DNA of 64,000 nt from Magnetovibrio sp. (GTDB taxonomy: Bacteria > Pseudomonadota > Alphaproteobacteria > Rhodospirillales > Casp-alpha2). Under the pieces are notes generated by a model. The model worked only from the letters and a program-made list of their open reading frames with translations, was not told the DNA's origin and ran no database searches. Shown piece by piece: positions 10,974 through 64,000 of the stretch (position 1 is the first letter of the stretch; each line of letters begins with the position of its first letter). A program made the position numbers and the translations under genes. Location: positions 53,230 through 117,229 of the forward strand of contig NZFO01000012.1 of the NCBI GenBank assembly GCA_002690705.1, given 5' to 3'.

Positions 10974-11911
10974 TGAGCATTCTGGTTCTTGCTGAACATG
11001 ACAATTCAGAATTAAAACCCGCAACTTTGAATACTGTCTCGGCTGCAAAAGAACTCGGGGACGTTACTATTTTAGTTGCTGGGAGCCTTTGTGGAGAGGT
11101 TGGCGAAGCAGCAGCAAGGGTAGAGGGTGTTGAAAAAGTTCTTGTTGCTGATGCTGAATTTTATGCTCATGCGTTAGCAGAAAACGTATCAGCGCTAATG
11201 GTTAGCCTTGGCGATAAGTATACGCATATGCTCGCCCCTGCAATGACATCCGGTAAAAATATCATGCCACGAGTTGCTGCTTTATTAGACGTGGCTCAGA
11301 TTTCTGATATTACCGCTATCAATGATTCTGCGACGTTTGAGCGCTCGATATACGCCGGTAACGCTATTGCAACTGTGCGGTCTGACGACCATATAAAAAT
11401 TATCACGGTCAGGACTACAGCCTTTGAACCAAGCAAAGCGGAGGGCGGAGGCGCTGCCATAGAAGTCATTTCTGCAATTGATGATGTTGGACTGTCAAGC
11501 TTTGTTGGGCAGGAACTCACCAAATCGGAACGACCAGAACTAACTAGTGCACCGATTATTATTTCGGGGGGCCGGGGAATGCAGTCCGGGGAAAACTTTC
11601 CCATGTTAGAAGAAATCGCCGATAAATTAGGCGCGGCTGTCGGTGCCAGTCGCGCAGCCGTAGACGCAGGCTTTGTTCCAAATGACTACCAAGTAGGCCA
11701 AACCGGTAAAGTAGTTGCACCTGATCTTTACATTGCGATAGGGATTTCTGGTGCAATCCAACATTTAGCCGGCATGAAAGACTCCAAGGTTATCGTAGCA
11801 ATCAATAAAGACGAAGAGGCCCCAATCTTTCAAGTAGCTGACTATGGTCTGGTCGATGATCTGTTCAATGCCGTACCTGAACTTTCAGCTGAACTTGAGA
11901 AGAGCCAATAA
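10973..11911 (+). CDS. etfA: electron transfer flavoprotein alpha subunit
   Basis: 312 aa with the FAD-binding C-terminus ([47 protein letters not shown]). Confidence 0.95.
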
Positions 11912-30793: not shown

Positions 30794-31404
30794 ACCTTAA
30801 AATTCGGTGTTTTATACAAATAGACAGGACTTTTATAGAGATCGTCAGCATATACCGTGGCAATGGGTTGCCAGTTGGGCATCGCAAATGTATGGCAGAC
30901 CACCAATGTACCAGGTACCATTTCACGTTCTAATTTTTTTTCCAATACTTCCATCTGCCGAGCCGAGAGATAACACGAGACCAATGCGGCATCACAAAGA
31001 TTGTATTGACTGAAATCATTGAGGTGGATTTCTAAGTTTTTGGGACCTCCCGTGGCCAAGCGGATCCATGTAAATACCCATGGTAATGGTGAACGTTCGA
31101 TTGCGATCACGCGATGGCTTGAAAACATACGAGCAAAAACTAACGCATTTCCTCCCCAACCAGCCCCAAGCTCGTATACGCGTCCCTTGTCCTCAAACAC
31201 CTCTGGAAGGCGCTTTGGTAACAATGCCAACATAGCGTTCCGTACTTTGGGGGAAGTTGGCGTTGGTGGACTGCCAGTTAGCAGCGTGTAACAGAAAATC
31301 ATCGCGATCGCGACAAGGCTTAGCCCAAGGATAATTAAGTCCACAGTAATCCTATTAAAAGCAATATTGCCATTTGGCGTGTTCAAGATAAAATAAAATT
31401 GCAA
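30790..31404 (-). CDS. class I SAM-dependent methyltransferase with N-terminal TM helix
   Basis: 204 aa with motif I VYELGAGWGGNA. It overlaps the pepP stop by 4 nt (convergent). Confidence 0.65.
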   Translation of the reverse strand: MQFYFILNTPNGNIAFNRITVDLIILGLSLVAIAMIFCYTLLTGSPPTPTSPKVRNAMLALLPKRLPEVFEDKGRVYELGAGWGGNALVFARMFSSHRVIAIERSPLPWVFTWIRLATGGPKNLEIHLNDFSQYNLCDAALVSCYLSARQMEVLEKKLEREMVPGTLVVCHTFAMPNWQPIATVYADDLYKSPVYLYKTPNFKV

Positions 31405-42766: not shown

Positions 42767-43134
42767 CCTACAACTCTCTGACCTAACTGCACATACTGGA
42801 GAGCGCTTTTTTAAAATAACTCTCAAGGGTCATATGCCGCCGCTGACTGGCGTTCGTCAAGTTATAGCAAAGCTTGAGTGAATAATTTACGAGTACATGG
42901 TAGCATTAACAAATTAACTAGGCGTGTTAACAGTTGTATTTAGATATTCAAGCAAGAGCCTCCCATCAAAGTTTACAAAAATTACCCGCTAATCGGCACC
43001 ACGCCGTTACTTTACTTAATAATCCATTCGAATTTACTGCATGCGGCGAACGTCTATTCATTCTGAAATCAACACGAGTTTAAAAATGACATAATTTTTC
43101 CACCGCTCTAATTAATAGCCGAATAGTGGGGTTT

Positions 43135-50996: not shown

Positions 50997-52010
50997 TTAG
51001 AACTGCATAACATCTTCTATACTTGAGTTAGCCGTCCATTTAAGAGTTAGGTCGGAGAGGCGGCTCACCATTTCGACACATTTTTCAGGGTACCGACCTA
51101 TTGCAGTTTCAGCCGCAAGCACTAACCCGTCTGCTCCCATAAGTAATGAACTCACTATATCGTTTGCTTCAGCCCGTGTGGGGGTTTCGGCCGTTACCAT
51201 AGACTCTAAGAGGTTCGTAGCAATATAGACAGGTACTCCTTGAGCTTTGGCCATGGATACTATCCGCCGCTGCAAAAAAGGGATTTTTTCAATTGGAAGT
51301 TGCCTTGAGAGATCCCCGCGGTCTATCAAAATTTCATCAGTTTCAGATAAGATTGCAGGTAAGTTAGCCAATGCTTTACGGGTTTCGATCTTAGAGATTA
51401 TCTTGGCATCTGGTCCACATAATCTCCGCATCCGCGCAACGTCATTGGCACTGCTTGCAAATGAGAGAGCAAAATGCTCTACGCCGTTCTTCAAGCCGAT
51501 ATCTATCGCCATCCTATCTTTTTTGGTAATTGCCGGCATTGTAATGTGTCGGTTTAAGCTAGCTGCTTTGTTACTGCCGACATGCCCGGCCTTTATTATC
51601 TTTGCAATACAATTATTTTTTTCACATTTCAGCACACGCAGAGCCGCCCCATTAAAGTCCAAATTAATCTCGTCCTCTACCTTGAATTTTTTAGCAATTC
51701 CAGTTGGATTAAATGAGATATTAGACGCGTCTCCAATCGTCTTGCAGAAATGGATAGTTACTTGGTCACCAGCTTTAAAATTTACGCCGTTTTTTTTCAT
51801 TTCTTGGTTACGTAGCTGCGCTCCCTCGCTATCCAAACATATGGGTACACTTGTCCAAGCCCTCAGTTTGTCAATATTATCTGCCACGTTTTCGATGGGT
51901 GTGTGTGAGAGATTTAATCGAAACAAAAAGACTCCGATATCAGCGCATTTTTGAATAACACGGGGATTTAGGGAATTCGGTCCGACAGTTACAAGAATCT
52001 TAGGGGTCAT
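50997..52010 (-). CDS. pyruvate-kinase-like protein, A/B (barrel) domains only, no C-terminal regulatory domain
   Basis: 337 aa (typical PK is ~470-480). PK-like motifs: ILVTVGP, RLNLSHT, SKIETRKA, LIDRGDLS, IATNLLESM, PTRAEANDI, ETAIGRYP. The LDTKGPEIR site is replaced by LDSEGAQLR. Confidence 0.75.
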   Translation of the reverse strand: MTPKILVTVGPNSLNPRVIQKCADIGVFLFRLNLSHTPIENVADNIDKLRAWTSVPICLDSEGAQLRNQEMKKNGVNFKAGDQVTIHFCKTIGDASNISFNPTGIAKKFKVEDEINLDFNGAALRVLKCEKNNCIAKIIKAGHVGSNKAASLNRHITMPAITKKDRMAIDIGLKNGVEHFALSFASSANDVARMRRLCGPDAKIISKIETRKALANLPAILSETDEILIDRGDLSRQLPIEKIPFLQRRIVSMAKAQGVPVYIATNLLESMVTAETPTRAEANDIVSSLLMGADGLVLAAETAIGRYPEKCVEMVSRLSDLTLKWTANSSIEDVMQF

Positions 52011-52260
52011 TCTAAATACTATCCTAATACTAATACTCTATTTTGAGCTATAAGAACGCGTCTACACTGGTATAAAGGCGCCAATACAGCAATGAGTAAA
52101 TATCGGCTTCATTTTAGTGTCAAAAACTTCAAATTTGAGTAATTAAATTGTTTTTGGGTAATTAAACTCTTAATGAGCGGCGGAACAGATTAGCCCATTT
52201 GAAATTTAGCACTCCGCTTATCAAGAACTAAAATATTTGGCCTGCAATCGTGATTTAGTC

Positions 52261-52271
52261 GGGGGGGGGGG
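52261..52271. repeat. G11 homopolymeric tract in the divergent intergenic region
   Basis: Read directly (c gggggggggggg a context: 10 G at 52261-52270 plus G at 52271). It lies 251 nt from the PK-like start and 212 nt upstream of the TTL-like start. Confidence 0.9.
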
Positions 52272-52482
52272 ACTATTGAGAGATTTTCCTTCCCGCATTT
52301 ATCGATGTGTTATAAAAAAGGGAAGAAACGGATGGGAAAGACGAGGCTTATACAGGAGCAATGCTACCGAGGACCCTCTGAAAGTTTTTAAAATCTCCAC
52401 AAGTCATTGAACTAAGATTTAAAGGGCGTAGTAACGTCTGGCAATTCCAAAGAAGACCCTAGGTAAGAAATGATCCAAGTCT

Positions 52483-53355
52483 ATGTCCACAATATACGTT
52501 TATCGCGCTCTTTTTAATCAAATATCCCAAATTCATACTTTTAAGGGTATTCCGATGCCCGGGCGTTATGTAACTGGAAATAAGGATTTTTCTGATCTGT
52601 TCATTGAATATTCTAGCGAGGGCGACATCCACAATAAAAAGTTTCTACAAAATTTTACAGGAGACTCATTTTTTCCTGAAACTTATTTTGAACTCGAAAC
52701 AACGCCAGTCGGAAGAAACTCTGAAACTTTCTTTTTAAAGAATTATCGATCAGATAATAGCGAGGATATAATAATTCTTAATGGCAGTCAGTTACCCCCC
52801 TTGGTTCCAAAATCTCATCTTTTGCAGTTAGAAATATTACCAAAACTCTACAGAGGAAAAAAATTTGATATCCGAGTATACGTTTGTGTGAGTAGAACCG
52901 GTGCCATCATGATTTATAAAAATATTTTTTACAGGATAAATCCCAACCTTTATCAGGAAGGAGAACATAAAGATCCTGAGCAATATCAATTTACAACGCC
53001 GATGGCGACAGGAGGAACTGGTAGCTTTTTCCAAAAAACTCGGCCTGGGCAATTTCCTATATCTGATTATTTAGCACAGTTAGAGATAATTATTCCAAAA
53101 ATATATAAGCGGCTGAGCCCTTTAGCTAATAGAGGGATTGCAGAGGATCTTGATTCCTCGTTCATGATAGGAGGGCTTGATTTCATTCCGTCTCGGGAAG
53201 GTGACAAACTTGTGTTCCTAGAGGTTAATGTTACGCCAGGGTGGCATATAAACTACGGACTAAAATACTATCAGGAGTTTTATCAACTCTCGACAGAGTT
53301 TATTCTTGGGCATGACAGAAATTCAGATGAATGCTTATATGCACAAGTATCCTAA
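52483..53355 (+). CDS. tubulin-tyrosine-ligase-like (TTL-family) ATP-grasp protein
   Basis: 290 aa. GKKFDIRVYVCVSRTGAIMIYKNIFYRI matches the TTL pattern (g.KFDlRiYVlvts..pl.iY.y.eG..R). FMIGGLDFIPSREGDKLVFLEVNVTPGW matches (FellGfDfliD....vWLiEVN.sPsl). Confidence 0.7.
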   Translation: MSTIYVYRALFNQISQIHTFKGIPMPGRYVTGNKDFSDLFIEYSSEGDIHNKKFLQNFTGDSFFPETYFELETTPVGRNSETFFLKNYRSDNSEDIIILNGSQLPPLVPKSHLLQLEILPKLYRGKKFDIRVYVCVSRTGAIMIYKNIFYRINPNLYQEGEHKDPEQYQFTTPMATGGTGSFFQKTRPGQFPISDYLAQLEIIIPKIYKRLSPLANRGIAEDLDSSFMIGGLDFIPSREGDKLVFLEVNVTPGWHINYGLKYYQEFYQLSTEFILGHDRNSDECLYAQVS

Positions 53356-53573
53356 TGCTAACACGTTTCTTAGACGTTCCTCGGAACATTATGCTGCTAA
53401 ATCTCATGTCAAAGAATAGCAGAATTATGCGCTAAAAACTGAAATTAAAATAACCACGGCGAAGGCCTAAAATATTGGACAGCGCCGATGTAGGAGAGGT
53501 ACATGTGGAGAATGCATGTGCATTTAGGCTTATGCCATTTGGTAATAAACATTAATCCTTTTATGCTCGTTAA

Positions 53574-53660
53574 TGGCAACTTGTTACCCAAATTGATTTT
53601 CCATCAGTATTTTTAATATCATGAGACAATTTTAAACCAAAAAAAAAGTCGCTTTTTGTT
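53574..53660 (+). repeat. 87-bp direct-repeat copy of the upstream region plus first 13 codons of the transglutaminase-fold gene (partner 58554-58640)
   Basis: Base-by-base comparison at a constant offset of 4980 bp gives 78/87 identical with no indels. The copy here has TTA->TAA in codon 5 (ATGAGACAATTTTAA). Confidence 0.85.
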
Positions 53661-53718
53661 AGACTTGCGAAAACGCCAAAATCACAGAGATGTTTGCAGA
53701 GCCTTTAGACAGAAATTC

Positions 53719-54498
53719 TCAGATGTCGCCTAACTCTCGTTCAAGCTGAAGTCGCTCATAGAAATATCGGTTATCGTCCCAGCTTTCGTTAGCTGGTGGC
53801 AATTTATCGTCCATCAGGGTTTCTTTTATGCGTAACAGGGTGTCAGAAACCCAGTCAGAGTTCCCAATGTAAGGGATGAGGGTTGTCTTGAACTCCATAA
53901 AGCCAACGTCCTCATAGCCTTGATGGTCAGAATAGAAGTCGTTATCGCCCTTGATACCGTTCACATAGAGAAAATATCCCAAATCAGAGACGGGAAATTC
54001 TCTCTTACGGAATAGCCATTGGTAGACTTCCATCTGTCGCTTGTATCCAGAACCCCAACCGCTCTCGATATCTGGGTCACCTTGTTTCGAGGTCGACTTG
54101 TAATCAACGATATAGAGTTCTTTGGAGTTGATATCTTCCCATACGTCATCGACAGCCCCAAACACCTCAAGGTTGGTTGCCTCGTCTAAATAACGGATAC
54201 CTTTGAAGTTGTTTCTCCAATCCTCAATTTCGGGATGTTGATATGGGATAACCTCAAGATTGAATTTCTCAAAGATTGGGTGTTCTGAGGATTGCTTCTC
54301 TCGGTAGCCATCAAACTCATTCTTGAGGAGATGGTCAGTAGCCACAGCAAGGGTAAGAGGAACCATTGATGGGGGTTTGAGACCGAACTTTCTCTGAAGG
54401 ACAAAGGTCCTTGGGCAGCGAAGGAACTGGTCTATCCCTGAACGGGATATGGGAAACGGGTCATCCCTATTTTTATCGAATTTATTATATCTCGCCAT
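53719..54498 (-). CDS. Cas4/RecB-like PD-(D/E)XK nuclease (no C-terminal Cys cluster)
   Basis: 259 aa with N-terminal SGIDQFLRCPRTF, motif II GAVDDV, motif III LYIVDYKS (D-x-K), and the QxxxY motif (RQMEVYQWL). Confidence 0.78.
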   Translation of the reverse strand: MARYNKFDKNRDDPFPISRSGIDQFLRCPRTFVLQRKFGLKPPSMVPLTLAVATDHLLKNEFDGYREKQSSEHPIFEKFNLEVIPYQHPEIEDWRNNFKGIRYLDEATNLEVFGAVDDVWEDINSKELYIVDYKSTSKQGDPDIESGWGSGYKRQMEVYQWLFRKREFPVSDLGYFLYVNGIKGDNDFYSDHQGYEDVGFMEFKTTLIPYIGNSDWVSDTLLRIKETLMDDKLPPANESWDDNRYFYERLQLERELGDI

Positions 54499-54515
54499 TC
54501 GTCAAATCCCATCTC

Positions 54516-54674
54516 CTATTGGAACTTATCCTTACAGCCGTACAAACATTGATTAGAATTCTCCGCACAGGTATCTGGTTTAATATTTGTTCCCACCGCA
54601 CAAGTCATATAAAGCTCTGCACAACCCTTCTTACATTTTTTATAATTGGCAGCACTTTTCTGCTTAGCAGGCTG
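54516..54674 (-). other. 52-codon Cys/Lys-rich reading frame continuing in frame after the TAA of the pentapeptide-repeat gene
   Basis: Hand translation: ...SGCKKGEKTS-TAA(54675-54677)-QPAKQKSAANYKKCKKGCAELYMTCAVGTNIKPDTCAENSNQCLYGCKDKFQ-TAG(54516-54518). It has six Cys. The same Cys/Lys-rich style (ENSGCKKG) already starts before the stop. Confidence 0.45.
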
Positions 54675-54968
54675 TTAGCTTGTTTTCTCACCCTTCTTGC
54701 AACCAGAGTTTTCCTCGCCCCATGGCATTTTTGTTTTACAGAGGATAGCTCCATCCAGTTTAGCATCCTTCAAGTTGGCCGTTGAAAGGTCCACTCCACC
54801 TAAGTCCGCCCCAATCAACTTGGCTTCACTCAAATCACGATTCTCACATTTATTTAGCGCCTTAAACTTTTTCAAATGAATTTCATTAAACGTCCACGCG
54901 GGAGCAGAAATACCCATCGCCAAGACAAATAGAATGTTAATTACGAGTAGTTTCTTGGAATTTGCCAT
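54675..54968 (-). CDS. secreted pentapeptide-repeat protein
   Basis: 97 aa with a signal peptide (KKLLVINILFVLAMGISAPA) and pentapeptide units (CENRDLSEAKLIGADLGGVDLSTANLKDAKLDGAIL). Confidence 0.75.
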   Translation of the reverse strand: MANSKKLLVINILFVLAMGISAPAWTFNEIHLKKFKALNKCENRDLSEAKLIGADLGGVDLSTANLKDAKLDGAILCKTKMPWGEENSGCKKGEKTS

Positions 54969-55074
54969 TTGTCAAACCACCAAAGTTGAAATTGCAGGTC
55001 TGATTGCCTCAGCATATGGGTATCAAGGTAACCGCACTCCATGTTATAAGACTTACGGTGATAAATAGGAGAAG

Positions 55075-55308
55075 ATGATGCAACTAACACCTGAACAAAC
55101 TGAGGAATTCGAGCATAAAATGCGTCAGTTATCTGATTTTGCTGAAACTTTGGGTCTGAGTTTAACAATTAACAGCTTACAGAAAACCAAAATACAGAGA
55201 AAAGAAACCTCTCCGGAAGAAGCTAAAATTTCAGGAGTTCGCAATCTCGACAGCAATGTGGCGATCGATAGTATTTGTGACTGCCAAATTACATACCATC
55301 CAAATTAG
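55075..55308 (+). CDS. hypothetical small protein
   Basis: 77-aa ORF with GGAG 3-6 nt upstream of tandem ATGs. No recognisable domain. Confidence 0.4.
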   Translation: MMQLTPEQTEEFEHKMRQLSDFAETLGLSLTINSLQKTKIQRKETSPEEAKISGVRNLDSNVAIDSICDCQITYHPN

Positions 55309-55331
55309 TGATTTAAATTATGCTGAGTAGC

Positions 55332-55385
55332 TTGATTTTAGGAGCGATTGCAAAATCAAAATGAGAACAAACGCTAACAAAATTA
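55332..55385 (+). repeat. partial copy (E) of the recurring intergenic module, 5' block only
   Basis: TTGATTTTA then GGAGCGATTGCAAAATCAAAATGA (55341-55364), compared with module A GGGACGATTGAAAAATCAAAGTGA (59984-60007). Confidence 0.55.
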
Positions 55386-55540
55386 GCAGACACTCATGTT
55401 GGCTCCACTCAACTCACAATTCTCACATTTTTTCGGCGCCCTAAATTTTTTCAGGTGCATGTCATCAAACGACCATGCAGTGTTAGACACCCTAATTGCC
55501 AAGGCAAATAGAATGTTAATTGTGAGTAGTTTAGAGTGGC
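55383..55540 (-). pseudogene. fragment paralogous to the N-terminus of the pentapeptide-repeat gene
   Basis: Hand translation KLLTINILFALAIRVSNTAWSFDDMHLKKFRAPKKCENCELSGANMSVC-stop, compared with KLLVINILFVLAMGISAPAWTFNEIHLKKFKALNKCENRDLSEAKL. There is no ATG and an upstream in-frame stop. Confidence 0.7.
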
Positions 55541-55622
55541 TAAGAAACGATGCTTAACATTTTTTTGCGTCTCTTCCCCGCTTAACTAAGTAGTTTGAGG
55601 GAAATTTAAAAGCTCAAAGAGA

Positions 55623-56930
55623 CTAATGAACTTTTAGCTTTGGCCGCACTATCCGATTAACATGACCAATTAAAATGAGCGTGAGACCCCTTAATAAACC
55701 ATGAATAGCCAGAAGGTGCAGACGATATAGAGACCAATAAGCTACTCTAGCCAATCTGCCCTCTATCGCCATATCACCTCTGATTAGGTTCCCCATAAGA
55801 CTTCCAATTGTGAAAAAACGGCTAAGCGACACAATCGATCCATTATCCTTATAAATAAACTCTTGAAGCGGTTTTTTTTCAATTTTAGCACAAAGGTTTA
55901 CAAACACTGCTTTAGCCATCTGGTGCGCAGCCTGTGCCCGTGGATGCAAGGGACGGTCAGCTGTTTTCGGAATGAATGAAGCACAATCGCCTATTGCAGA
56001 TATTCGCTCATCTAGGCTCGTTTGCAAAAACTCGTCCACCACTAGCCTTGAGAGCTTATCGGTCTCAAGACCATCCAATTCCGAGAGATAATCCGCACCT
56101 TTTACTCCGGCGGCCCATAAGGTGAGGGAAGAGTTAATTTTTCGTCCGTCGCTCGTCGTAATTTGGGTTTTACCAACCTCGGAAACTACTGTTGATGTGT
56201 GAATGGTTACTCCCATCAAGGATAATTCCTTCTTTGCCGTACTTGCCAGTTTCTCGGGGAGCGAGGGAAGTATGCGCTGACCAGCTTCGATCAGACTGAC
56301 CCTCAGGCGGCTTTCGTCAAAATCTTCTAAGCCATAATTTTTTAGACTTTTCGCTGCGTTATAAAGCTCCGCCGCGAGTTCGACCCCTGTAGCTCCACCA
56401 CCAACGATCACCACATCGACGTGAGCATCTTTATGGCCTGAATCAACTTGAAGAGATACCTTAAAACATTCATTCAAAAGTTTGGCTCTAAATTCGTCAG
56501 CATGCGCACGTTGCTCCAAAAAAAGCGCATTCGTCGAAACTCCACGGATGGAAAAATCATTAGAGACACCGCCAGTCGCTATAACCAAGTAATCGTAATA
56601 AATGTCATGAGCTTTGATGATTTCCTCTCCATTCTGATCTTTAAGTGGAGCAATTGTTATCAGCCGCTTGTTTCGATTAATGCTATGAAATGTTCCATAA
56701 AAGAAACGGTATCCCCATTTTACACCGTGACCACCATACCCGACCTCATCCAGATTAGCGTCCAGCGAGCCTGCTGCTACTTCATGAAGAAGAGGTTTCC
56801 AGAGGTGTGTTCGGTTTTTGTCAACTAGCATGATTTCAGTATCTTTAGCGCTAAAATATGTCCCTAGCTTACGCACCAATTCCAGTCCGCCAGCCCCACC
56901 GCCAATCACAACAATCCGTTTCTTATCCAT
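55623..56930 (-). CDS. ndh: type II NADH dehydrogenase (NDH-2)
   Basis: 435 aa with two dinucleotide-binding motifs (IVVIGGGAGG, VVIVGGGATGVE) and a C-terminal membrane-association region. Confidence 0.88.
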   Translation of the reverse strand: MDKKRIVVIGGGAGGLELVRKLGTYFSAKDTEIMLVDKNRTHLWKPLLHEVAAGSLDANLDEVGYGGHGVKWGYRFFYGTFHSINRNKRLITIAPLKDQNGEEIIKAHDIYYDYLVIATGGVSNDFSIRGVSTNALFLEQRAHADEFRAKLLNECFKVSLQVDSGHKDAHVDVVIVGGGATGVELAAELYNAAKSLKNYGLEDFDESRLRVSLIEAGQRILPSLPEKLASTAKKELSLMGVTIHTSTVVSEVGKTQITTSDGRKINSSLTLWAAGVKGADYLSELDGLETDKLSRLVVDEFLQTSLDERISAIGDCASFIPKTADRPLHPRAQAAHQMAKAVFVNLCAKIEKKPLQEFIYKDNGSIVSLSRFFTIGSLMGNLIRGDMAIEGRLARVAYWSLYRLHLLAIHGLLRGLTLILIGHVNRIVRPKLKVH

Positions 56931-57105
56931 TTACGTGTCCACTACTTCTTAATTTAATTACGATTAATAGATGCAACATTTTACTGTTCATAATTTTAAT
57001 AAGAGCTAATCTTGCCAAGATTCCTCCCATTATTCTGAAAAGATCATACATCATTTTAATAATGCAAATTACCGGTTATGTCTTCAGCGATTATTTAATG
57101 ACCAA

Positions 57106-57122
57106 CATGTAAATATTACATG
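57106..57122. promoter_or_regulatory. palindrome CATGTAA-ATA-TTACATG upstream of ndh
   Basis: Read directly: 7-bp perfect arms, 176 nt upstream of the ndh start in an AT-rich spacer. Confidence 0.3.
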
Positions 57123-57264
57123 GGTAAACTTATTCTAACAGCGCTGCGTAAAATAACTCGCAATATAATTATAACCAGTTTTACCCATAAAAAATTCAGT
57201 TGTGCCTAGTTCATACCAGCAAATGGACTACCTATAACTAGGCAGTTGTTCATATAGGTATGCA

Positions 57265-57475
57265 GGGATAACCTCAAGGTTGATTTTCTCAAAGATTGGG
57301 TGTTCTGAGAATTGCTTCTACCGGCAGCCATCAAACTCATTCTTAAAAAGATGGTCAGTAGTCAGGGCAAGTGCAAGAATAACCATCGATGGGGGTGTAA
57401 GGCCGAACTTCCCCCGAAGAATAAAGGCTCTTGGACACTCTCCCAGAGGGAACCGTAAGAGACGGACTATCCAAG
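57265..57475 (-). pseudogene. fragment paralogous to the N-terminus of the PD-(D/E)XK nuclease gene (original 54245-54440)
   Basis: Hand translation CPRAFILRGKFGLTPPSMVILALALTTDHLFKNEFDGCR-TAG-KQFSEHPIFEKINLEVIP, compared with CPRTFVLQRKFGLKPPSMVPLTLAVATDHLLKNEFDGYREKQSSEHPIFEKFNLEVIP. Confidence 0.75.
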
Positions 57476-58132
57476 GTCTTAGCCAAGAGTGAGCCTTTAG
57501 GGAAACTCATAGCCGTCGACACAGCCGAGTTGATTGAGAGAACAACCCACATAGGCAATATCGGACCCAGACAACAGGTAACCGCTTCCCAGATGAGCAA
57601 GTTCGAGAATGCTATCTTGGGCTTTGGGAGACTAAGAATTAAATATCGAACAACAGGTAAGGCAAAAGCGTCGTGGCGAGAGGTTGAACCTCTTGGGCTT
57701 CTATTTGGTCGATTTGGTTATCTCGTGGCGAACCTATCCAAGACCGCAATGAAACCCCTCACCTACCGTCTCGACCTCATCGAGGATGTTGAGGATTTGC
57801 GAGAGATGTTCGAGGAACCCAAAAATTTTGATTTTAAAGAATGGGCAAAAGAGAGTTTTGGAATTTTTCACGGCGATGAATTGCTGGATATAAAACTTCG
57901 TTTTACGGGAGAAGCGGCAAAACGAGCCGAAAAAATCTCGTTTCATCCATCTCAAAAGATGAGCAAGGGACGAGGTGGCTCAACCATCATTGAATTGAGG
58001 TGTAGAGGTCATCGAGAACTCATCCACGAACTTTGCCACCCAGACTGGGTTGGGCAATTAGCTATTGAAAAACCAGACGAATTCCGTGCATCGTATTTCG
58101 AGTATGTAAAAGAGTTGGGAGAACTATCCTGA
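57431..58132 (+). CDS. WYL-domain protein lacking the N-terminal HTH (WYL + WCX domains only; TTG start; possibly a pseudogene)
   Basis: 233 aa with a WYL-type core (GRLRIKYRT...REVEPLGLLFGRFGYLVA...YRLDLIEDVE), then a C-terminal extension (IKLRFTGEAAKRAEKISFHPSQK...IIELRC...). The 5' end abuts and overlaps the nuclease-fragment junction. Confidence 0.7.
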   Translation: MDTLPEGTVRDGLSKVLAKSEPLGKLIAVDTAELIERTTHIGNIGPRQQVTASQMSKFENAILGFGRLRIKYRTTGKAKASWREVEPLGLLFGRFGYLVANLSKTAMKPLTYRLDLIEDVEDLREMFEEPKNFDFKEWAKESFGIFHGDELLDIKLRFTGEAAKRAEKISFHPSQKMSKGRGGSTIIELRCRGHRELIHELCHPDWVGQLAIEKPDEFRASYFEYVKELGELS

Positions 58133-58283
58133 CTTTGCTTTTCCGCAACTTGTCGATATATTGGCGAAATTACGCAAGAAAAAGGGAGAAATTTGCGTTT
58201 ATTGTTGAGAAATTCCCGACAATCTTTTGACAATCTTTTTTTGGTGTTTTCAAGAGTATCGTAAGTCATTGATTTTATTAGTT
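58133..58283 (+). repeat. copy D of the recurring intergenic module (tandem 11-mers GACAATCTTTT x2 at 58218-58239; TTGATTTTATT at 58269-58279)
   Basis: Read directly. It lies immediately after the WYL gene stop, as does copy A. Confidence 0.7.
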
Positions 58284-58321
<38 letters not shown>

Positions 58322-58385
58322 AAGATAGCTCTCCAGCCCTTCATTTGCGTTCAGCCTAATTTAATCAATTAATAGAGTTCTTTAC

Positions 58386-58416
58386 AGTCGCAGAAATCTG
58401 CGACTTCCTTTTTTTA
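58386..58416 (+). terminator. rho-independent terminator
   Basis: The AGTCGCAG-AAAT-CTGCGACT hairpin (58386-58405) is followed by TCCTTTTTTT. Confidence 0.8.
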
Positions 58417-58417
58417 T

Positions 58418-58439
58418 GGACAAGTTTTGGACAAGTTCT
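58418..58439 (+). repeat. tandem 11-mers GGACAAGTTTT / GGACAAGTTCT
   Basis: Read directly. They are related to the GACAATCTTTT pair 200 nt upstream. Confidence 0.8.
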
Positions 58440-58600
58440 GTTTTTATGGTATCTTATCGGTATGGCAAAATGCCGTCCCCTTCTCGATACCTATGAAGCA
58501 GTTGTTGAAAGCAGAGTTTGGTTTCACAAGCAACGGAACAATGGTAAGACCTCTGGCAACTTGTCGCCAAAATTGATTTTCCATCAGTATTTCTAATATC

Positions 58601-59563
58601 ATGAGACAATTTTTAACCAAAAGAAAAGTCGCTTTATTTGCAATTGGTGTAATTGCTATGAGCCTCCATTTTAAGTGGTCATCTTTTGTTAATGTTGTCG
58701 ATTACCTTTTTATGAACGGCCCTTATCTCAGCCGAACGCTTATTTATTCAGCAGAAGTTTTTGGACCCGCGAGCCGAGAACTTGCCGAAATTATTTATAA
58801 AAACCAGTACGAGGATAGGCACTGGTATAGGGTCAACTTGAGGAAAGCTAACGCCGCACTTAGGTCAAAAACAGGAATAGAGGCAAAAGTTATCAAAAAC
58901 TTTCAAATATTCATAAAAGCTTATTTAAAAATAAGAGACTCCTATCAAGGGGCCGACGCAATAACCGAGGATGTGGCAGTCAAAAAAGTAGTCGCTTTAG
59001 TTAATAAGTTCTATCAAAAGCACAAAAGAGCGAGTGTACCGCATGATCCTCAGACCTTTTTGAATTGGCCATTCCATGGTGAGAACCATTTAATTAAAGT
59101 TGCAGCTACCACAACCGCATGCGGCATAACCGCTGAGGCAACGTTAACATTACTGCGTGATCTCGGATTTCAGACTAGATTACTTGGCGTTGCTAATTCG
59201 GCGGAAAAGATTGTCTTCAATCACGTTTTGCTCGAGTACTATTCCAATCAACACAAGAAATGGATCATGCTTGACCCAATGGTGGGCGACATAGCAGGGA
59301 ACTCTGAGGCTTCACTGAGCGCGATTGAGATGATCCAATCTGTGCAAGCTCGTCAGAAGCTAAATGAAAAATGGAGTCAAAACGGGAATAGCCCGCTTGG
59401 CAAGGTTAACTTCAACCCGGTCTATAAATCTGAATCGATTATATTTTTTTCCCGCGATTTAGGGCCATTCAAAGAAACTTTTTATTACGCTAATAGTGAG
59501 CGGATAAGAGAAAGGGTAAAAGAACGAGTGTCCCAGATGCGCTTTCGACCAGAATGGCTATGA
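58601..59563 (+). CDS. transglutaminase-fold (Cys-His-Asp) protein with N-terminal membrane anchor
   Basis: 320 aa with an N-terminal TM (VALFAIGVIAMSL) and a core pattern TTACGITAEATLTLLRDLGFQTRLLGV...NHVLLEYY...KWIMLDP, equivalent to C...H...D of transglutaminase-like cysteine peptidases. Confidence 0.65.
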   Translation: MRQFLTKRKVALFAIGVIAMSLHFKWSSFVNVVDYLFMNGPYLSRTLIYSAEVFGPASRELAEIIYKNQYEDRHWYRVNLRKANAALRSKTGIEAKVIKNFQIFIKAYLKIRDSYQGADAITEDVAVKKVVALVNKFYQKHKRASVPHDPQTFLNWPFHGENHLIKVAATTTACGITAEATLTLLRDLGFQTRLLGVANSAEKIVFNHVLLEYYSNQHKKWIMLDPMVGDIAGNSEASLSAIEMIQSVQARQKLNEKWSQNGNSPLGKVNFNPVYKSESIIFFSRDLGPFKETFYYANSERIRERVKERVSQMRFRPEWL

Positions 59564-59619
59564 TAACGTGCTAAAAAATTAACGACTTTATCATTCTATT
59601 GAAAGAGGTGGCTGCCTCA

Positions 59620-59978
59620 CGTATATCCTCTCGTCTGCTCATCAAATTGAGTTCATGGGGTCGAGAAACTTTAAATTTAAAAAGTGGGCGAAACCGGGTT
59701 TTAGATTTTTTCTCTGGGCCAAGCTATTGGAAATAAAACTTCGTTTTACGGGCGAAGGCTCAAAAAGAGCCAAAAAAATTTCATTTCATCCATCTCAAAA
59801 GATGAGCAAGGGACGAGGTGGCTCAACTATCATTGAATTGAGATGTAGAGGTCATAGAGAACTCATTCACGAACTATGTAGACCAGAGTGGGTCGGGCAG
59901 TTAGTCATTGAGAAACCAGAGGAGTTTCGGACAAAATATTTTGAGTATTTAGATGAATGTGCGAAAGCTATCGCTTAA
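59620..59978 (+). pseudogene. 5'-truncated second copy of the WYL gene (end of WYL domain + WCX domain)
   Basis: Track ORF 59655..59978: ...NFKFKKWAK...IKLRFTGEGSKRAKKISFHPSQKMSKGRGGSTIIELRCRGHRELIHELCRPEWVGQLVIEKPEEFR, compared with copy 1 residues ~135-225. Nucleotide similarity is traceable back to about 59620 (LTYIL vs LTYRL). It starts 57 nt after the upstream gene stop. Confidence 0.75.
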
Positions 59979-60188
59979 TATGAGGGACGATTGAAAAATC
60001 AAAGTGATGACAAGTTCGAACAGGAACGACAGAAAGCCTAGGGCGAGGATACATCCCACAATGCACTCTACGTCAAAGTCACGTCAAAGTAAAACTAAAG
60101 CGTTGATTTTATTTATGAAATCGCTCTGGGACGATTGAGTGGGAGTGATTTATTTATTGTTTAATATCAATAGGTTAGGCGTTTTTTT
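59972..60188 (+). repeat. copy A (full length) of the recurring intergenic module
   Basis: 5' block CTTAATATGAGGGACGATTG (59974-59993); distal site AATCAAAGTGA (59997-60007); tandem ACGTCAAAGTC/ACGTCAAAGTA (60070-60091); TTGATTTTATT (60103-60113); GAGTGGGAG (60137-60145). Confidence 0.85.
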
Positions 60189-61097
60189 ATGAATGATATG
60201 ATCGAATTCAAGAAATGGATGGAGTTAAGTACCGATCTGTCGGAAAAGTCGATGAAGAATTACGCTGGTGGAGTAAAGAAAATTGAGGCAGATCTTCTGG
60301 AACTCGATCTGACTAACCAAAATCTTTTTGAAATAACTAGTCCAGATGATTTGACGCATTTAAAAAGTCAATATTTTCAGATTTCAGAGAATAAGGAATT
60401 AGATGAACGAGGCAAAGGTATGTACAGCGCTGCGTTCAACAAATTAATAGAGTTTAGAACAGACCAAGGTTCAACTCCCCTCTCCGACGAAGGAATTGTT
60501 TACATACTCTCGAACCCTGCAATGCCTGGATTAGTTAAAATTGGCAAAACAAACAATTTACAAAATCGACTCAATAGTCTGTTCAGCACAGGTGTTCCTA
60601 TCCCATTTCGATGTGTATATGCAAAAAGAGTAAAAAATTATTCAAAAGTAGAGTCTAAACTTCATAACGGTTTAAGAAGTATGCGAGAAAATCCAAATCG
60701 TGAATTTTTTCGAATAGCAGAAGATGAAGTAATTAATTTTCTGGAAATGGTTGAAGGGGAAGACATCACCCCAAGAGAAGATCGATTTGAAGATAAAGAG
60801 GACGAAGTTGCTTTCGAGAGAGCAACGAGAATTGGACAGAGATTTAACTTTGAAATGGTGGGCATCAAAATTGGATCAATGCTTCATTTTATTCGCGACG
60901 AAAATATCACCTGTAAAGTCATATCAAAAAATAAGGTTGAATTTGAAGGAAGCGAGCATTCACTCTCGAGCGCCGGTTTGATCGCAACTAATAGATTTGG
61001 TTTCAATTGGAAGAGCGTTGCTGGACCACTTAATTGGAAATTTGAAGGAGAAATATTAGACGAAAGAAGAAAGAGATATGAAAGCGGTGATGAGTAG
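60189..61097 (+). CDS. T5orf172-type GIY-YIG domain protein with extra N- and C-terminal domains
   Basis: 302 aa. The central region GIVYILSNPAMPGLVKIGKTNNLQNRLNSL...PIPF...ESKLHNGL...NREFFRI fits the T5orf172/MUG113 pattern. The C-terminal ~90 aa (SLSSAGLIA...GPLNWKFEGEIL) resemble the small domain capping GIY-YIG proteins in R-M loci (inference). Confidence 0.78.
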   Translation: MNDMIEFKKWMELSTDLSEKSMKNYAGGVKKIEADLLELDLTNQNLFEITSPDDLTHLKSQYFQISENKELDERGKGMYSAAFNKLIEFRTDQGSTPLSDEGIVYILSNPAMPGLVKIGKTNNLQNRLNSLFSTGVPIPFRCVYAKRVKNYSKVESKLHNGLRSMRENPNREFFRIAEDEVINFLEMVEGEDITPREDRFEDKEDEVAFERATRIGQRFNFEMVGIKIGSMLHFIRDENITCKVISKNKVEFEGSEHSLSSAGLIATNRFGFNWKSVAGPLNWKFEGEILDERRKRYESGDE

Positions 61098-61210
61098 TTT
61101 CTTTATTGATTTGCTATAATCCACCAGAGTTTCAAAGCAGTTTCAAAGTAAAACCAAACTATTGATTTTATTGAATAAAATAGGGTATTTTTATTGAGTG
61201 GGAATAATCC
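61098..61210 (+). repeat. copy B (5'-truncated) of the recurring intergenic module
   Basis: Tandem AGTTTCAAAGC/AGTTTCAAAGT (61128-61149); TTGATTTTATT (61162-61172); GAGTGGGAA (61196-61204). Confidence 0.8.
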
Positions 61211-61325
61211 AAAAAATTTTATTAGGGTGATATGCGAAATGCTGAAATTCAATTTTTTTAAAACACTGATGTTCTCATCAATGTTATTAAAAATATGCTG
61301 TGCGCCACAGTTCGGAGAATAACTA

Positions 61326-61922
61326 ATGGCAACAATAAAAGCCACAAATCCAGTAAACGACTACAAACAAGAAATTTCTGAATTGAGTTGGTTGTGGAGT
61401 TTGATTTTTGGCGCATTCTTTTTTGCGTTTAAGGGGGCGTGGAAGCACTTCATTATTGGTATTATTGCGGCCATAGTTACGGTCGGAATTAGCTGGTTAA
61501 TTTATCCATTCTTCGCACGTCAAATAATTATTAACTCCTATCTTGAAAGAGGTTGGTCTATTGATGGCTTGCCTCAAATAGAGATGCCTGACGGTAAGTT
61601 CCAAGCCAGTTCTATAAAAAGCTCAAAAACGGCACCTTTACTTTTTCTCGCATCATTTGCTCTTTGGCTCATGGTCTCTTCTTACTTTGGCTTAATCTTG
61701 CTTTATGCCTTCGAATTGGATTATGAGCAAATAGTCCCAATCCAGGCACTTGCGTGGACGGTACTAGGACCGTTTATAATAATTGTCTTTGATATTTATC
61801 CCTCGATCAAAACTGGAGCTTTTTTAGCCTACACCACTGGAGCCGTCTCGCTGATAGTCCACTCTCTATTGCTTTGGTTCGCATATGGCGTATTCAAAAA
61901 CAGTCGGCAAAATAAAGATTAA
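61326..61922 (+). CDS. DUF2628-like multi-pass membrane protein
   Basis: 198 aa. The N-terminal WLWSLIFGAFFFAFKGAWKHFIIGII...YPFFARQIIINSYLERGW resembles DUF2628. Three further TM helices follow. Confidence 0.6.
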   Translation: MATIKATNPVNDYKQEISELSWLWSLIFGAFFFAFKGAWKHFIIGIIAAIVTVGISWLIYPFFARQIIINSYLERGWSIDGLPQIEMPDGKFQASSIKSSKTAPLLFLASFALWLMVSSYFGLILLYAFELDYEQIVPIQALAWTVLGPFIIIVFDIYPSIKTGAFLAYTTGAVSLIVHSLLLWFAYGVFKNSRQNKD

Positions 61923-62046
61923 TATATAAAGGGTAAATTAGGCACATATACGCTTAACCTCAGTAGCAGAGAAAACTGTATTCTTTGCCGTAGCGTACCA
62001 AGCCTTGAATAACTCCCTCACAACCCGGTCATGGGACTTTTGATTA

Positions 62047-62080
62047 CCAGATACGGATTTTCGTCTACGCAGTCTTCTGG
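62047..62080. repeat. 34-nt repeat, copy 1 (partner 63717-63750)
   Basis: CCAGATACGGATTTTCGTCTACGCAGTCTTCTGG vs CCAGATATGGGTTTTCTTCTGCGCAGACGTCTGG, 28/34 identical. The ends are inverted (CCAGA...TCTGG). Confidence 0.7.
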
Positions 62081-62134
62081 CTTCTCTAACCAGTTGAGAA
62101 CCGAGTTCTAAATAAGATTTTCGCCCCCCCACGT

Positions 62135-63331
62135 TTAAATTGTCCTCGCTGATCGCGCCGCAAGAGTAAGAGCTATGGCCCCTGATAGACCAATAATTGC
62201 AGTGGTGACAATCAATAAATGGTAGCCGCCGATACTCCAGATCATCCCGGCAATCGATGGGGCGATAGCCATCGAAAACAAAAATGGGACGGCAAGAAAT
62301 CCAGCAACGACGCCAAACCGACGACGCCCAAGAAGTTCCGCAATTAAGATTGGACGCACAATGCTCGCAACCCCAAAACCGGCTCCTTGAAACAGCACAA
62401 ATAGGATTAAGAACACCATTCCGGACCCAACGCCGAACAACATTAGCGTGGCAAAAGCCATCGAGAGAAAGGCCGCTGTTGCTACCGCAACAACCTGAAC
62501 CCGCCCTTCAAATGCGATCATTGCCAGTCGCCCAGATACCTGCATTGGCCCAATCATAGCCGCTGCAAAAACTGCCATTTCAGAATGAACGCCTCTCTCG
62601 TCTAACAAAACTAACAAATGTGATAGAATAGCGTTATGATCGAATGCCATCGCAGCGAATGCAAAGCCAAGGAGCACCAAAGTACGCAGGGTTACAGGGT
62701 TTAAATTCTGCCCAGTATTTTGGGCGGGCGGTTCTGGTGGGGCCGGATTTGCAGTCTGTGCTTGGGACACAGCATATAAATTTAAAGGTGCAGAAATCAG
62801 ACCTATTAGAATGGCAAATGTCAAAATAACACCTCTCCAACCAATTTCTTCGATCAGAGCGTGAGCGGTTGGAAAGGCAATAGTACCGGCAAATCCAGCA
62901 AGAAGCGTAACCAGCGTTATTGATTGAGGCGCCCGTTTTCCCATGTGGAGAGTTAAAATTGCAAAGCATGGTTCGTAAAGACTGCCCGCCATAACCACCC
63001 CTAAACTCGCCCAGACGAGATAGAAATGCCAAAGCTCTGTCACAAATGATAAGGCCCCCAATAACACTGCGGTGACTAGTGTTGCTGTTGGAAATAAAAT
63101 TTGGCTGCGACCTTTATCAATCTGTTTGCCTACGAACGGAGCTAAGAACGCCGATAGCAGTAAGGCGGTTGTAAAAGCGCCGGCGGCCTCCGCTTTTGAC
63201 CATCCAAGGTCACGTTCCCATTCGCCTAACAATGATGGGAAAAGGTAAAAAGCCCCGGCCCATAGGAATGTCTGAGCGATGGCTAAGGGCCAAACTATAC
63301 GCTTAAACTTTGTTCGGTGACTAGACACCAT
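62135..63331 (-). CDS. MFS transporter
   Basis: 398 aa with 12 predicted TM helices. It is visibly GC-richer than its flanks. Confidence 0.85.
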   Translation of the reverse strand: MVSSHRTKFKRIVWPLAIAQTFLWAGAFYLFPSLLGEWERDLGWSKAEAAGAFTTALLLSAFLAPFVGKQIDKGRSQILFPTATLVTAVLLGALSFVTELWHFYLVWASLGVVMAGSLYEPCFAILTLHMGKRAPQSITLVTLLAGFAGTIAFPTAHALIEEIGWRGVILTFAILIGLISAPLNLYAVSQAQTANPAPPEPPAQNTGQNLNPVTLRTLVLLGFAFAAMAFDHNAILSHLLVLLDERGVHSEMAVFAAAMIGPMQVSGRLAMIAFEGRVQVVAVATAAFLSMAFATLMLFGVGSGMVFLILFVLFQGAGFGVASIVRPILIAELLGRRRFGVVAGFLAVPFLFSMAIAPSIAGMIWSIGGYHLLIVTTAIIGLSGAIALTLAARSARTI

Positions 63332-63716
63332 AATCAGAGAGCTTTACTACCCTTTAATATCCGCGGTTTTCATACCGAATAATATCGTATGTTCTTTGGT
63401 TATAAATTTAGTTTAGCTTTCTAACGCTAAGATTCTTAGTAAACAGGTGTGGACTACAAACAACGGCTATTTAACCATTTGGAGATACGAAAAATGTCGT
63501 GTTTACAATGACCATGCTGATTTTAAGGTTTAGTTGTGTTCATCTACCTTAATTCAAAAAAAAAATCAATTTTGTCTGTAATCACATGATAACGTTTTAA
63601 CTAAGCTTATTCACTCTCAATAATAAACAGTAAAGATTCGAAACAAGAACAGACGAACACTTAAAATCAAAATTGTACCAGTTTAATGTTCTACCCAATC
63701 AAAGTTATTTTACTCC

Positions 63717-63750
63717 CCAGATATGGGTTTTCTTCTGCGCAGACGTCTGG
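63717..63750. repeat. 34-nt repeat, copy 2
   Basis: See 62047-62080. It lies 53 nt upstream of module copy C. Confidence 0.7.
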
Positions 63751-63803
63751 TTGTCTTTGCCAATCATCGTTTTCAATATCACCTTCCACCATGATCAAAC
63801 CTC

Positions 63804-64000
63804 TCGCTTAATATGAGGAACGATTGTAACGTTGAACTCTTGATAGGGTGTAAGTTAAGCCACACAAAACCAAAGGCAGATTTCCAGCGAAATGGCAGCC
63901 AGCGTCGAAGTAGCGTCGAACTAAAAATACGATATTGAGTCTATTGGTGAATTAGGTCGGGTTTTATCGAGTGGGAGTAAAATATAAAAAATAAAATATT
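63804..64000 (+). repeat. copy C of the recurring intergenic module (cut by the window edge)
   Basis: 5' block CTTAATATGAGGAACGATTG (63807-63826); distal site AACGTTGAACT (63828-63838); tandem AGCGTCGAAGT/AGCGTCGAACT (63901-63922); TTGAGTCTATT (63935-63945); GAGTGGGAG (63969-63977). Confidence 0.85.

Follow-up and report, generated by a model that had tools for sequence, protein, structure and literature searches.

The genomic island GIsul2 integrates at the 3' end of guaA, at 5'-GAGTGGGA-3' (PMC9376610; Harmer et al. 2017 as cited there), and its attachment (att) sites are termed attL, attLR and attR (PMC9376610). The GIsul2 integrase has been shown experimentally to act in trans: it moves CR2-sul2, a unit that has no integrase and is delimited by an att site inside the island (Zhang et al. 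2022, PMC9376610). In tycheposons, older elements are displaced inward as new ones integrate again and again at the same site (Hackl et al., bioRxiv 10.1101/2020.12.28.424599). Here we analyse a 64,000-nucleotide (nt) stretch of contig NZFO01000012.1 from Magnetovibrio sp. (the window), whose AT-rich right-hand part holds a recurring module with tandem 11-mers that differ from copy to copy. We propose that the modules are the right-hand attachment junctions (a P arm with its core, of the attR or attLR type) of integrative elements whose heterobivalent tyrosine integrase targets the last codons of guaA, a reading that we consider probable.

A preliminary description of the window had listed five copies of the module, A to E, and had offered operators, iterons or recombinase arm sites as functions for the 11-mers. 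The blocks lie where it had placed them. With up to 3 mismatches allowed, the frame TTGATTTTATT-N23-GAGTGGGAG is matched three times in the window (60103, 61162 and 63935), compared with 0 matches in shuffles, and the 5' block CTTAATATGAGGRACGATTG is matched twice (59974 and 63807) where 0.02 matches are expected. Inside each of modules A, B and C the tandem 11-mers are identical at 10 of 11 positions. We also see the third, distal copy of the repeat in both modules for which it had been claimed, as TCAAAGT in A and as AACGTTGAACT in C. The coordinates of all these blocks are given in Table 1.

The block at the 3' end of the module reveals the target. The gene after module A encodes a protein with a Pfam T5orf172 domain, whose identical sequence occurs on other marine contigs, there 40 nt behind guaA; on those contigs guaA ends GGT ACG ATT GAG TGG GAG TGA, encoding G-T-I-E-W-E-stop. 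Therefore the 3' block, GAGTGGGAG, duplicates the 3' end of guaA, the gene for GMP synthase, and is thus an att core. In locus L001 (related loci are numbered in this way), guaA ends in GGTACGATTGAGTGGGAGTGA and is followed by the same T5orf172 gene; ACGATTGAGTGGGAGTGA of module A is identical to this guaA end, and the N23 spacer of module A mimics guaA codons as well (…GGGACGATT). The preliminary description did not recognise the module as a described element and missed that GAGTGGGAG is the guaA 3' end, a core already described for GIsul2.

Comparison with L001 also defines the unit that has moved. Window positions 60131-61203 differ from L001 at 3 of 1,073 positions (99.7% identity), and the similarity ceases just beyond ACGATTGAGTGGGAGTGA at the left-hand edge and ATTGAGTGGGA at the right-hand edge; the T5orf172 cassette starts with TTTATTTATTGTTTAATATCAATAGG. 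What the two loci have in common is one gene plus module B between two cores. This cassette is found with three different right-hand neighbours, the third in L066, and homology of the window to L001 and to L066 ends at 61203. Similarly, a cassette with a 403-amino-acid (aa) major facilitator superfamily (MFS) protein directly follows guaA in L046 and takes second place behind it in L058, with 98.9% identity; the guaA genes of these two loci are 98.2% identical. A guaA gene ending KPPGTIEWE stands one cassette upstream of modules in L019, L046, L058, L060 and L048. Identical cassettes, unrelated flanks and breakpoints at the core would imply site-specific excision and integration at this core, as judged by comparing the sequences; we observed no circular junction or empty site. 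Cassette boundaries are what the modules mark; they are not promoters or operators linked to the starts of genes.

Public genome and metagenome collections contain many more such modules. A scan with the pattern TTGAKTYTATT-N23-GAGTGGGA gave 16 matches in the genome collection and 44 in the metagenome collection, about half of them chance matches in coding DNA of unrelated bacteria. The remaining matches comprise 24 distinct modules, whose sources are without exception marine or Caspian metagenomes and Alphaproteobacteria-like metagenome-assembled genomes (MAGs); there is no sign of a viral origin, the pattern having 0 matches in IMG/VR. The core is followed by an in-frame stop codon (E-W-E-stop) in 21 of the 24 family modules and in 0 of 27 chance matches, and retention of this stop is expected if an element must restore guaA when it adjoins that gene. 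A tandem pair stands at a fixed distance from the core in all of at least 19 distinct modules. When the window and public contigs are taken together, giving 19 distinct modules, the repeats agree at a mean of 9.2 of 11 positions within a module and 7.1 of 11 between modules, with every between-module pair scored at the best of 28 registers, which bears out the earlier observation that copies of the repeat are more alike within a module than between modules. In contrast, when the unrelated chance matches to the frame in the public collections are compared with themselves, the best 11-nt match reaches only 2-8, at a variable position. Elements that share the core carry arm motifs of the classes GTCAAAGT, TTTCAAAG, GTCGAAGT, GTCAAAC, TTACAAAG, TTACACA and CTTCTAA, and a 7-nt core of the 11-mer unit is kept across these classes.

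Alignment of the P arms revises the description of their 5' portion. What had been taken for the 5' block of a non-coding module is where a WYL-regulator gene ends, this being the final gene in one type of element; the stop codon of the WYL fragment at 59616-59978 falls inside the block of module A. Eleven WYL-type P arms (10 of them distinct, L059 and L068 being near-duplicates) align over ~150 nt, in the order gene end, GAGGGACGATTG, single site, conserved GGAACGNCAGAAARCC block, tandem pair, a site like that for integration host factor (IHF), and core. The ~75 nt ahead of the tandem pair had been called unrelated between copies; they are homologous in most members via the common block GGAACGNCAGAAARCC, and C is the diverged one. 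A distal TCAAAGT goes with a pair of type GTCAAAGT or GTCAAAC (A, L058, L070b, L067 and L059/L068), and a distal TTGAAST goes with a pair GTCGAAST (C, L008, L019 and L056). The co-variation of distal and tandem sites proposed for A and C thus extends to 10 of the 11 aligned P arms (ten distinct) and fails in L046; coming from about two lineages, it is weak evidence alone. In L037, L069 and L074 a small serine recombinase gene, not a WYL gene, adjoins the P arm, and the WYL gene family is itself widespread as a chromosomal gene without a module (L027-L032).

A clue to what the 11-mers do comes from loci with integrase genes. PF00589 integrases of 443 aa and 425 aa begin 150-200 nt past the core in L037 and L074, respectively, and the motif of each module's tandem pair (TTCAAAGT in L037, TTACAAAGT in L074) appears again in tandem pairs between the core and int. 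The same both-arm pattern is seen with CGTCAAAGT and CGTCAAA in L058 and L046. When exact copies of the module's own 8-9 nt repeat were counted and compared with mononucleotide shuffles, these four loci had tandem pairs at -66/-55 and ~+52 to +76 from the core, all in one orientation, and the shuffles ~0 copies. A motif that is repeated on both arms, is unlike the core and lies beside an integrase gene is what defines arm-type sites in an attP of the lambda type. The best reading of the 11-mers is thus that they are arm-type sites of an integrase, which would be the protein that binds them. Among the functions first suggested, recombinase arm sites find support in these motif pairs flanking the core beside tyrosine-integrase genes; operators and iterons find none, as there is no promoter consensus and no replication gene nearby.

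A further integrase type is found in L067, where an N-terminal remnant begins at the same 150-200 nt past the core. Its homologues lie directly behind guaA in L077, L078 and, at full length, Azospirillum sp. TSH58 (L079), the only full-length copy of this type found; the best solved relative of these integrases is the HP1 integrase. The modules also have a candidate bending site. The IHF consensus (WATCAANNNNTTR; on the other strand YAANNNNTTGATW) is met before TTGAT in 20 of 24 modules compared with 2 of 27 chance matches, and YAA-N4-TTGATW inside TTGATTTTATT is a putative IHF-type site at which IHF is predicted to bind.

This architecture resembles the attP sites of lambda and HP1, which likewise have ~10-11 bp direct repeats on both arms, distinct from the core, and an IHF-consensus site between arm sites and core, and whose integrases carry additional N-terminal sequence in front of the core-binding and catalytic domains. 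The marine elements differ in targeting the end of a protein-coding gene and in being islands or cassettes, not phages (0 viral-contig matches). Lambda and HK022 share arm sites and have different cores; the marine elements show the reverse, with one core and many arm motifs. We take lambda/HP1 attP as the mechanistic model, and integrons and tycheposon islands as functional analogues. Like integrons, the window has tandem one-gene units, each with a recombination site at its 3' end, and a cassette may recur in other arrays or orders. Unlike integron attC, an imperfect inverted repeat that takes up its fold in single-stranded DNA, the marine sites are direct repeats with a fixed core; there is no IntI-type integrase, attI or Pc here, and the array is anchored at the guaA end. 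We rejected integron attC as an identity for the modules on the grounds of the direct repeats, a fold z of -0.67, the lack of an arm-length inverted repeat and the lack of an integrase in the window. Tycheposon islands resemble the marine arrays in that repeated integration leaves behind integrase fragments and partial att copies, which delimit the cargo modules of a flexible island (bioRxiv 10.1101/2020.12.28.424599). They insert, however, at tRNA or tmRNA genes, guaA has 0 occurrences in bioRxiv 10.1101/2020.12.28.424599, and the hosts here are Alphaproteobacteria.

GIsul2 is close to the marine family in three respects: it uses the same 8-bp guaA core, GAGTGGGA, with int beside guaA; a small serine recombinase gene (resG in GIsul2) lies just upstream of its right-hand internal att, as in L037, L069 and L074; and its internal att site bounds an integrase-less unit, as in the window cassettes. 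On the other hand, its Int (P4-like, 400 aa; from pAB3) matches the L037, L074 and Azospirillum-type integrases only over short stretches (blastp E >= 0.02), and the marine integrases form two mutually distant lineages. The L074 Int has no tblastn match among plasmids; a plasmid match at 28% identity proved to be a lambdoid phage-plasmid integrase. The GIsul2 P arm lacks the TTGATTTTATT-N23 frame and has its own repeated motif, CATGGTAT-like, and the ResG-like resolvases beside the P arm in L037, L069 and L074 show ~24-30% identity. Other GIsul2 backbone genes (alpA, repA/C, trb) were not seen, and the window has a WYL gene in the position of resG. The marine elements also differ from GIsul2 in ending with a WYL or resolvase gene, in occurring in Alphaproteobacteria and in forming long arrays of very small cassettes. 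We therefore place the marine elements outside the GIsul2 family proper, as a new family of a system whose kind is already known.

In GIsul2 itself (L082, pAB3), TCATGGTATTT and TCATGGCACTG form a pair of direct repeats that precedes attLR by ~70-80 nt (42790-42900), and there are several CATGGTAT-like copies upstream of int (30830-31020); these could be its arm-type sites, of which there is no mention in PMC9376610. It may also be observed that three integrase lineages with little or no detectable mutual similarity (L037, L074, L067/L079, L082) all adjoin the same 8-bp core, GAGTGGGA, at the guaA end.

In the mechanism that we propose, a circular element with the order P arm-core-P' would integrate at the end of guaA, leaving P' and int beside guaA and the P arm and core at the far end. 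Strand exchange would occur at GAGTGGGAG with its stop codon, the element's own copy of the guaA end (…ATT GAG TGG GAG stop), so that guaA is kept intact. The integrase would bind the 11-mers (the tandem pair 11-12 bp upstream of TTGATTTTATT and the distal copy) through its N-terminal domain and the core through its other domains, and the IHF site 23 bp upstream of the core would bend the DNA to let arm-bound integrase reach the core. Repeated integration at the regenerated core, followed by loss of int and other backbone genes, would yield cassettes separated by P arm-core modules. Elements with a shared core but differing arm motifs would depend on separate integrases, one for each. That the core is common to the elements and the arm motif is not would explain why repeats are alike inside a module and unlike from one module to the next. 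Taken as a whole, this account makes the window an integrase-less tandem array of cassettes of 1-3 genes, every cassette closed by a P arm and core of its own and left by elements that have decayed, and we think it likely to be right. More speculatively, single genes with a complete P arm and guaA-end core may be captured, reordered and lost at guaA (and at the WYL/tRNA-Ala locus) by trans-acting integrases, an integron-like exchange of cassettes built on lambda-type recombination, with the variable 11-mers as address labels that match a cassette to a single integrase out of several orthogonal ones with the same core; this extension is possible but doubtful.

Several observations weigh against the proposed attachment junctions. 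A complete integrase is paired with its own arms at only two loci, and all L067-type copies in marine metagenome or MAG contigs are truncated, frameshifted or interrupted by insertion sequences (IS) (P0121-P0137; L077 10001-10690). In the cases seen (L019 and L067), WYL-type elements, the type of A and C, have arm motifs solely on the P side, and the P arm of L046 has a distal site of another class than its tandem pair. No integrase or resolvase homologue lies within the 64-kb window, and therefore any present movement of its cassettes would need an enzyme encoded elsewhere, in trans. The array stands behind a WYL gene and half a tRNA-Ala, not behind guaA, which calls for an extra rearrangement; recombination between the WYL genes of two element types is one possibility. 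Finally, the unit duplicated in the WYL-tRNA-Ala spacer is lineage-specific: the spacer has two copies in the window (GACAATCTTTT x2) and in L083 (GCAACCAAGTT/G x2, ~2070-2095) and a single unit in L023 (~11050-11075), and these differences in copy number show that loss and re-duplication of the unit occur.

This last point favours the view that 11-mer identity within a copy is neutral replication slippage and says nothing about binding specificity. We find this very improbable, given that the tandem pair keeps a fixed distance from the core in at least 19 distinct modules, that the 7-nt core of the unit is conserved across classes, and that chance matches to the frame lack such pairs; moreover, non-adjacent copies 120-180 nt away across the core share the motif and cannot be homogenised by slippage. 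An unlikely but less easily dismissed alternative leaves the module as an att arm and has the 11-mers bind an accessory protein, such as an excisionase (recombination directionality factor, RDF), a WYL regulator or a small serine recombinase, in place of the integrase. In the lambda P arm, Xis binds the tandem sites X1/X2 next to the core-proximal IHF site, and the tandem pair of the modules, just upstream of the IHF-like site, has the position of X1/X2. A WYL or resolvase gene always adjoins the P arm, and in GIsul2 resG likewise lies just upstream of attLR. However, the motif also occurs in tandem pairs on the P' side beside int, unlike Xis sites, and the same frame with closely similar motifs stands behind WYL genes and resolvase genes alike. 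In GIsul2, deletion of resG was without effect on recombination (PMC9376610). The WYL or helix-turn-helix (HTH) proteins named in the preliminary description are unlikely binders, since this frame and these motif classes are also found behind a resolvase gene instead of a WYL gene.

The modules might also be promoter/operator or iteron units for the downstream gene, with the 11-mers as WYL-type or response-regulator-type sites. Modules do lie upstream of open reading frames (ORFs), TTGATT resembles a -35 hexamer, and direct repeats phased at 11 bp are known in some activator-dependent promoters. Against this, A, B and C have no sigma-70-type match (the region has 14 such matches where 14.1 are expected) and no conserved -10 at proper spacing, the module belongs to the upstream cassette while the downstream gene varies among genomes, the resident WYL gene is without its HTH part, and no replication gene is nearby; we regard this explanation as highly improbable. 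An operator for a WYL protein of the BrxR/CapW kind was rejected as well: the sites are downstream of the gene, the resident WYL protein is without its first 90 residues, the frame also stands behind resolvase genes, WYL genes are widespread in chromosomes that have no module beside them, and there is no promoter consensus. Of the three readings excluded at the outset, namely an RNA fold, a miniature inverted-repeat transposable element (MITE) and low-complexity sequence, our results agree on the first two, in that the window has 0 Rfam matches at the gathering threshold, module A folds with z = -0.67, not better than shuffles, and the repeat search gave no terminal inverted repeats.

If the modules are attachment junctions, a puzzling non-coding repeat is explained as the footprint of site-specific recombination, and integration at the guaA end emerges as a builder of the flexible island in uncultured marine Alphaproteobacteria. 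With one core, one spacing frame and at least 7 classes of arm motif, the modules would form a natural series for the study of how integrase arm recognition diversifies at a constant target, and one that could be mined for orthogonal recombination tools. The GIsul2 observation that att-bounded integrase-less units move in trans would be extended to very small oceanic cargo cassettes.

Modules D and E do not belong with the others, so that the five equivalent copies of the preliminary description reduce to A, B and C, which share the frame. Remnant E is a 74% identical piece of the 5' part, and D is the spacer that natively separates a WYL gene from tRNA-Ala; D has in common with the modules only TAAGTCATTGATTTTATT and a tandem pair at another distance, and has no GAGTGGGAG core. 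The close relative L023 has the same neighbourhood (aroA, FYDLN, PD-(D/E)XK nuclease) with an intact 325-aa WYL gene, behind which come 150 nt of spacer, a tRNA-Ala(GGC) that is likewise intact, and the remnant of an integrase. In the window, the resident WYL gene consists of residues 91-325 of its 325-aa homologues, the first ~90 codons (the HTH part) being gone (tblastn). ARAGORN found no intact tRNA or tmRNA; the tRNA-Ala is broken after position 38 (58321), with the same junction in the independent assembly L052, and its missing 3' half was not found in the window. The D2 pair, ~100 nt past the break, is related to the D pair ~100 nt before it. By analogy with the guaA modules, D and D2 may be P- and P'-like parts of the same att architecture around a tRNA-Ala core.

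The features of the array are listed in Table 1. Apart from A, B and C there are no guaA cores in the window; beyond module C the array goes on in L070 and L003 with another cassette and module. The element-borne WYL fragment has 79% nt identity with positions 57808-58107 (repeat search).

Table 1. Coordinates of the cassette array and its module blocks in the window.
Feature	Positions	Strand	Basis
Remnant E, 5' block and distal site of a WYL-type P arm, 74% identical	55330..55379	+	repeat search
WYL/WCX regulator gene, 5'-truncated, resident copy beside tRNA-Ala	57425..58132	+	Pfam WYL and WCX; tblastn with full-length homologues
Module D, native WYL-tRNA-Ala spacer	58133..58283	+	alignment with orthologous spacers L083, L023
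D tandem pair, GACAATCTTTT x2	58218-58239		
D block TAAGTCATTGATTTTATT	58262-58279		
tRNA-Ala(GGC), 5' 38 nt, cut at anticodon-loop end	58284..58321	+	foreign DNA thereafter
D2 tandem pair, GGACAAGTTTT/GGACAAGTTCT	58418..58439	+	sequence
First-cassette cargo gene, 320 aa, weak transglutaminase-like match	58601..59563	+	
Second, element-borne WYL gene, 3' fragment (residues ~202-326)	59616..59978	+	tblastn
Module A P arm	59974..60136	+	
A 5' block, containing GGGACGATTGA	59974-59993		
A distal site, TCAAAGT	59999-60005		
A tandem sites, ACGTCAAAGTC/ACGTCAAAGTA	60070-60091		
A IHF-consensus site, TAAAGCGTTGATT	inside 60096-60113		
Core of A, GAGTGGGAG+TGA (E-W-E-stop); left edge of T5orf172 cassette	60137..60148	+	
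T5orf172 cassette: short P' remnant, gene 60189-61097, own P arm (module B)	60149..61195	+	
B tandem pair, AGTTTCAAAGC/AGTTTCAAAGT	61128-61149		
B block TTGATTTTATT	61162-61172		
Core of B, GAGTGGGAA+TAA (E-W-E-stop); right edge of T5orf172 cassette	61196..61207	+	
Next cassette: membrane protein, 64-aa ORF, MFS transporter	61208..63806	unassigned	
198-aa membrane protein	61326-61922	+	
MFS transporter	62135-63331	-	
Module C: P arm and core	63807..63980	+	
C: last bases of lost WYL gene and 5' block	63807-63826		
C distal site, AACGTTGAACT	63828-63838		
C tandem pair, AGCGTCGAAGT/AGCGTCGAACT	63901-63922		
C block TTGAGTCTATT	63935-63945		
C core, GAGTGGGAG+TAA	63969-63980		

Some minor observations concern the modules and their surroundings. 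The string GRGACGATTG(A/T)AAA of the 5' block (59984-59994) echoes the guaA bases just left of the core (60126-60136) and also closes the outer edge of the P' arms in L046 (~7010-7030) and L058 (~2440-2460); it is a candidate second core-type site or a fossil core. The protein of the mobile single-gene cassette (60189-61097) has a T5orf172/MUG113 domain, which is GIY-YIG-like. Two ORFs in L002, of 107 and 198 aa, match window ORFs in length and are nevertheless unrelated to them. Beside remnant E, a 142-nt direct repeat (54812-54953 and 55391-55532, 77% identity) includes a decayed duplicate, at 55391-55532, of the 5' part of a pentapeptide-repeat gene (54675-54968, minus strand); a seeming inverted core remnant at 55403-55421 was rejected as part of this duplicate. 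Between the resident WYL gene (57425-58132) and a divergent NADH-dehydrogenase-like gene lie ~490 nt of non-coding DNA. The G+C content is 0.37-0.44 from ~52 kb on (52000-64000) compared with 0.45-0.50 elsewhere in the window, and among the genes in this low-G+C stretch are one for a tubulin-tyrosine-ligase-like ATP-grasp protein (52483-53355) and one for a PD-(D/E)XK nuclease (53719-54498).

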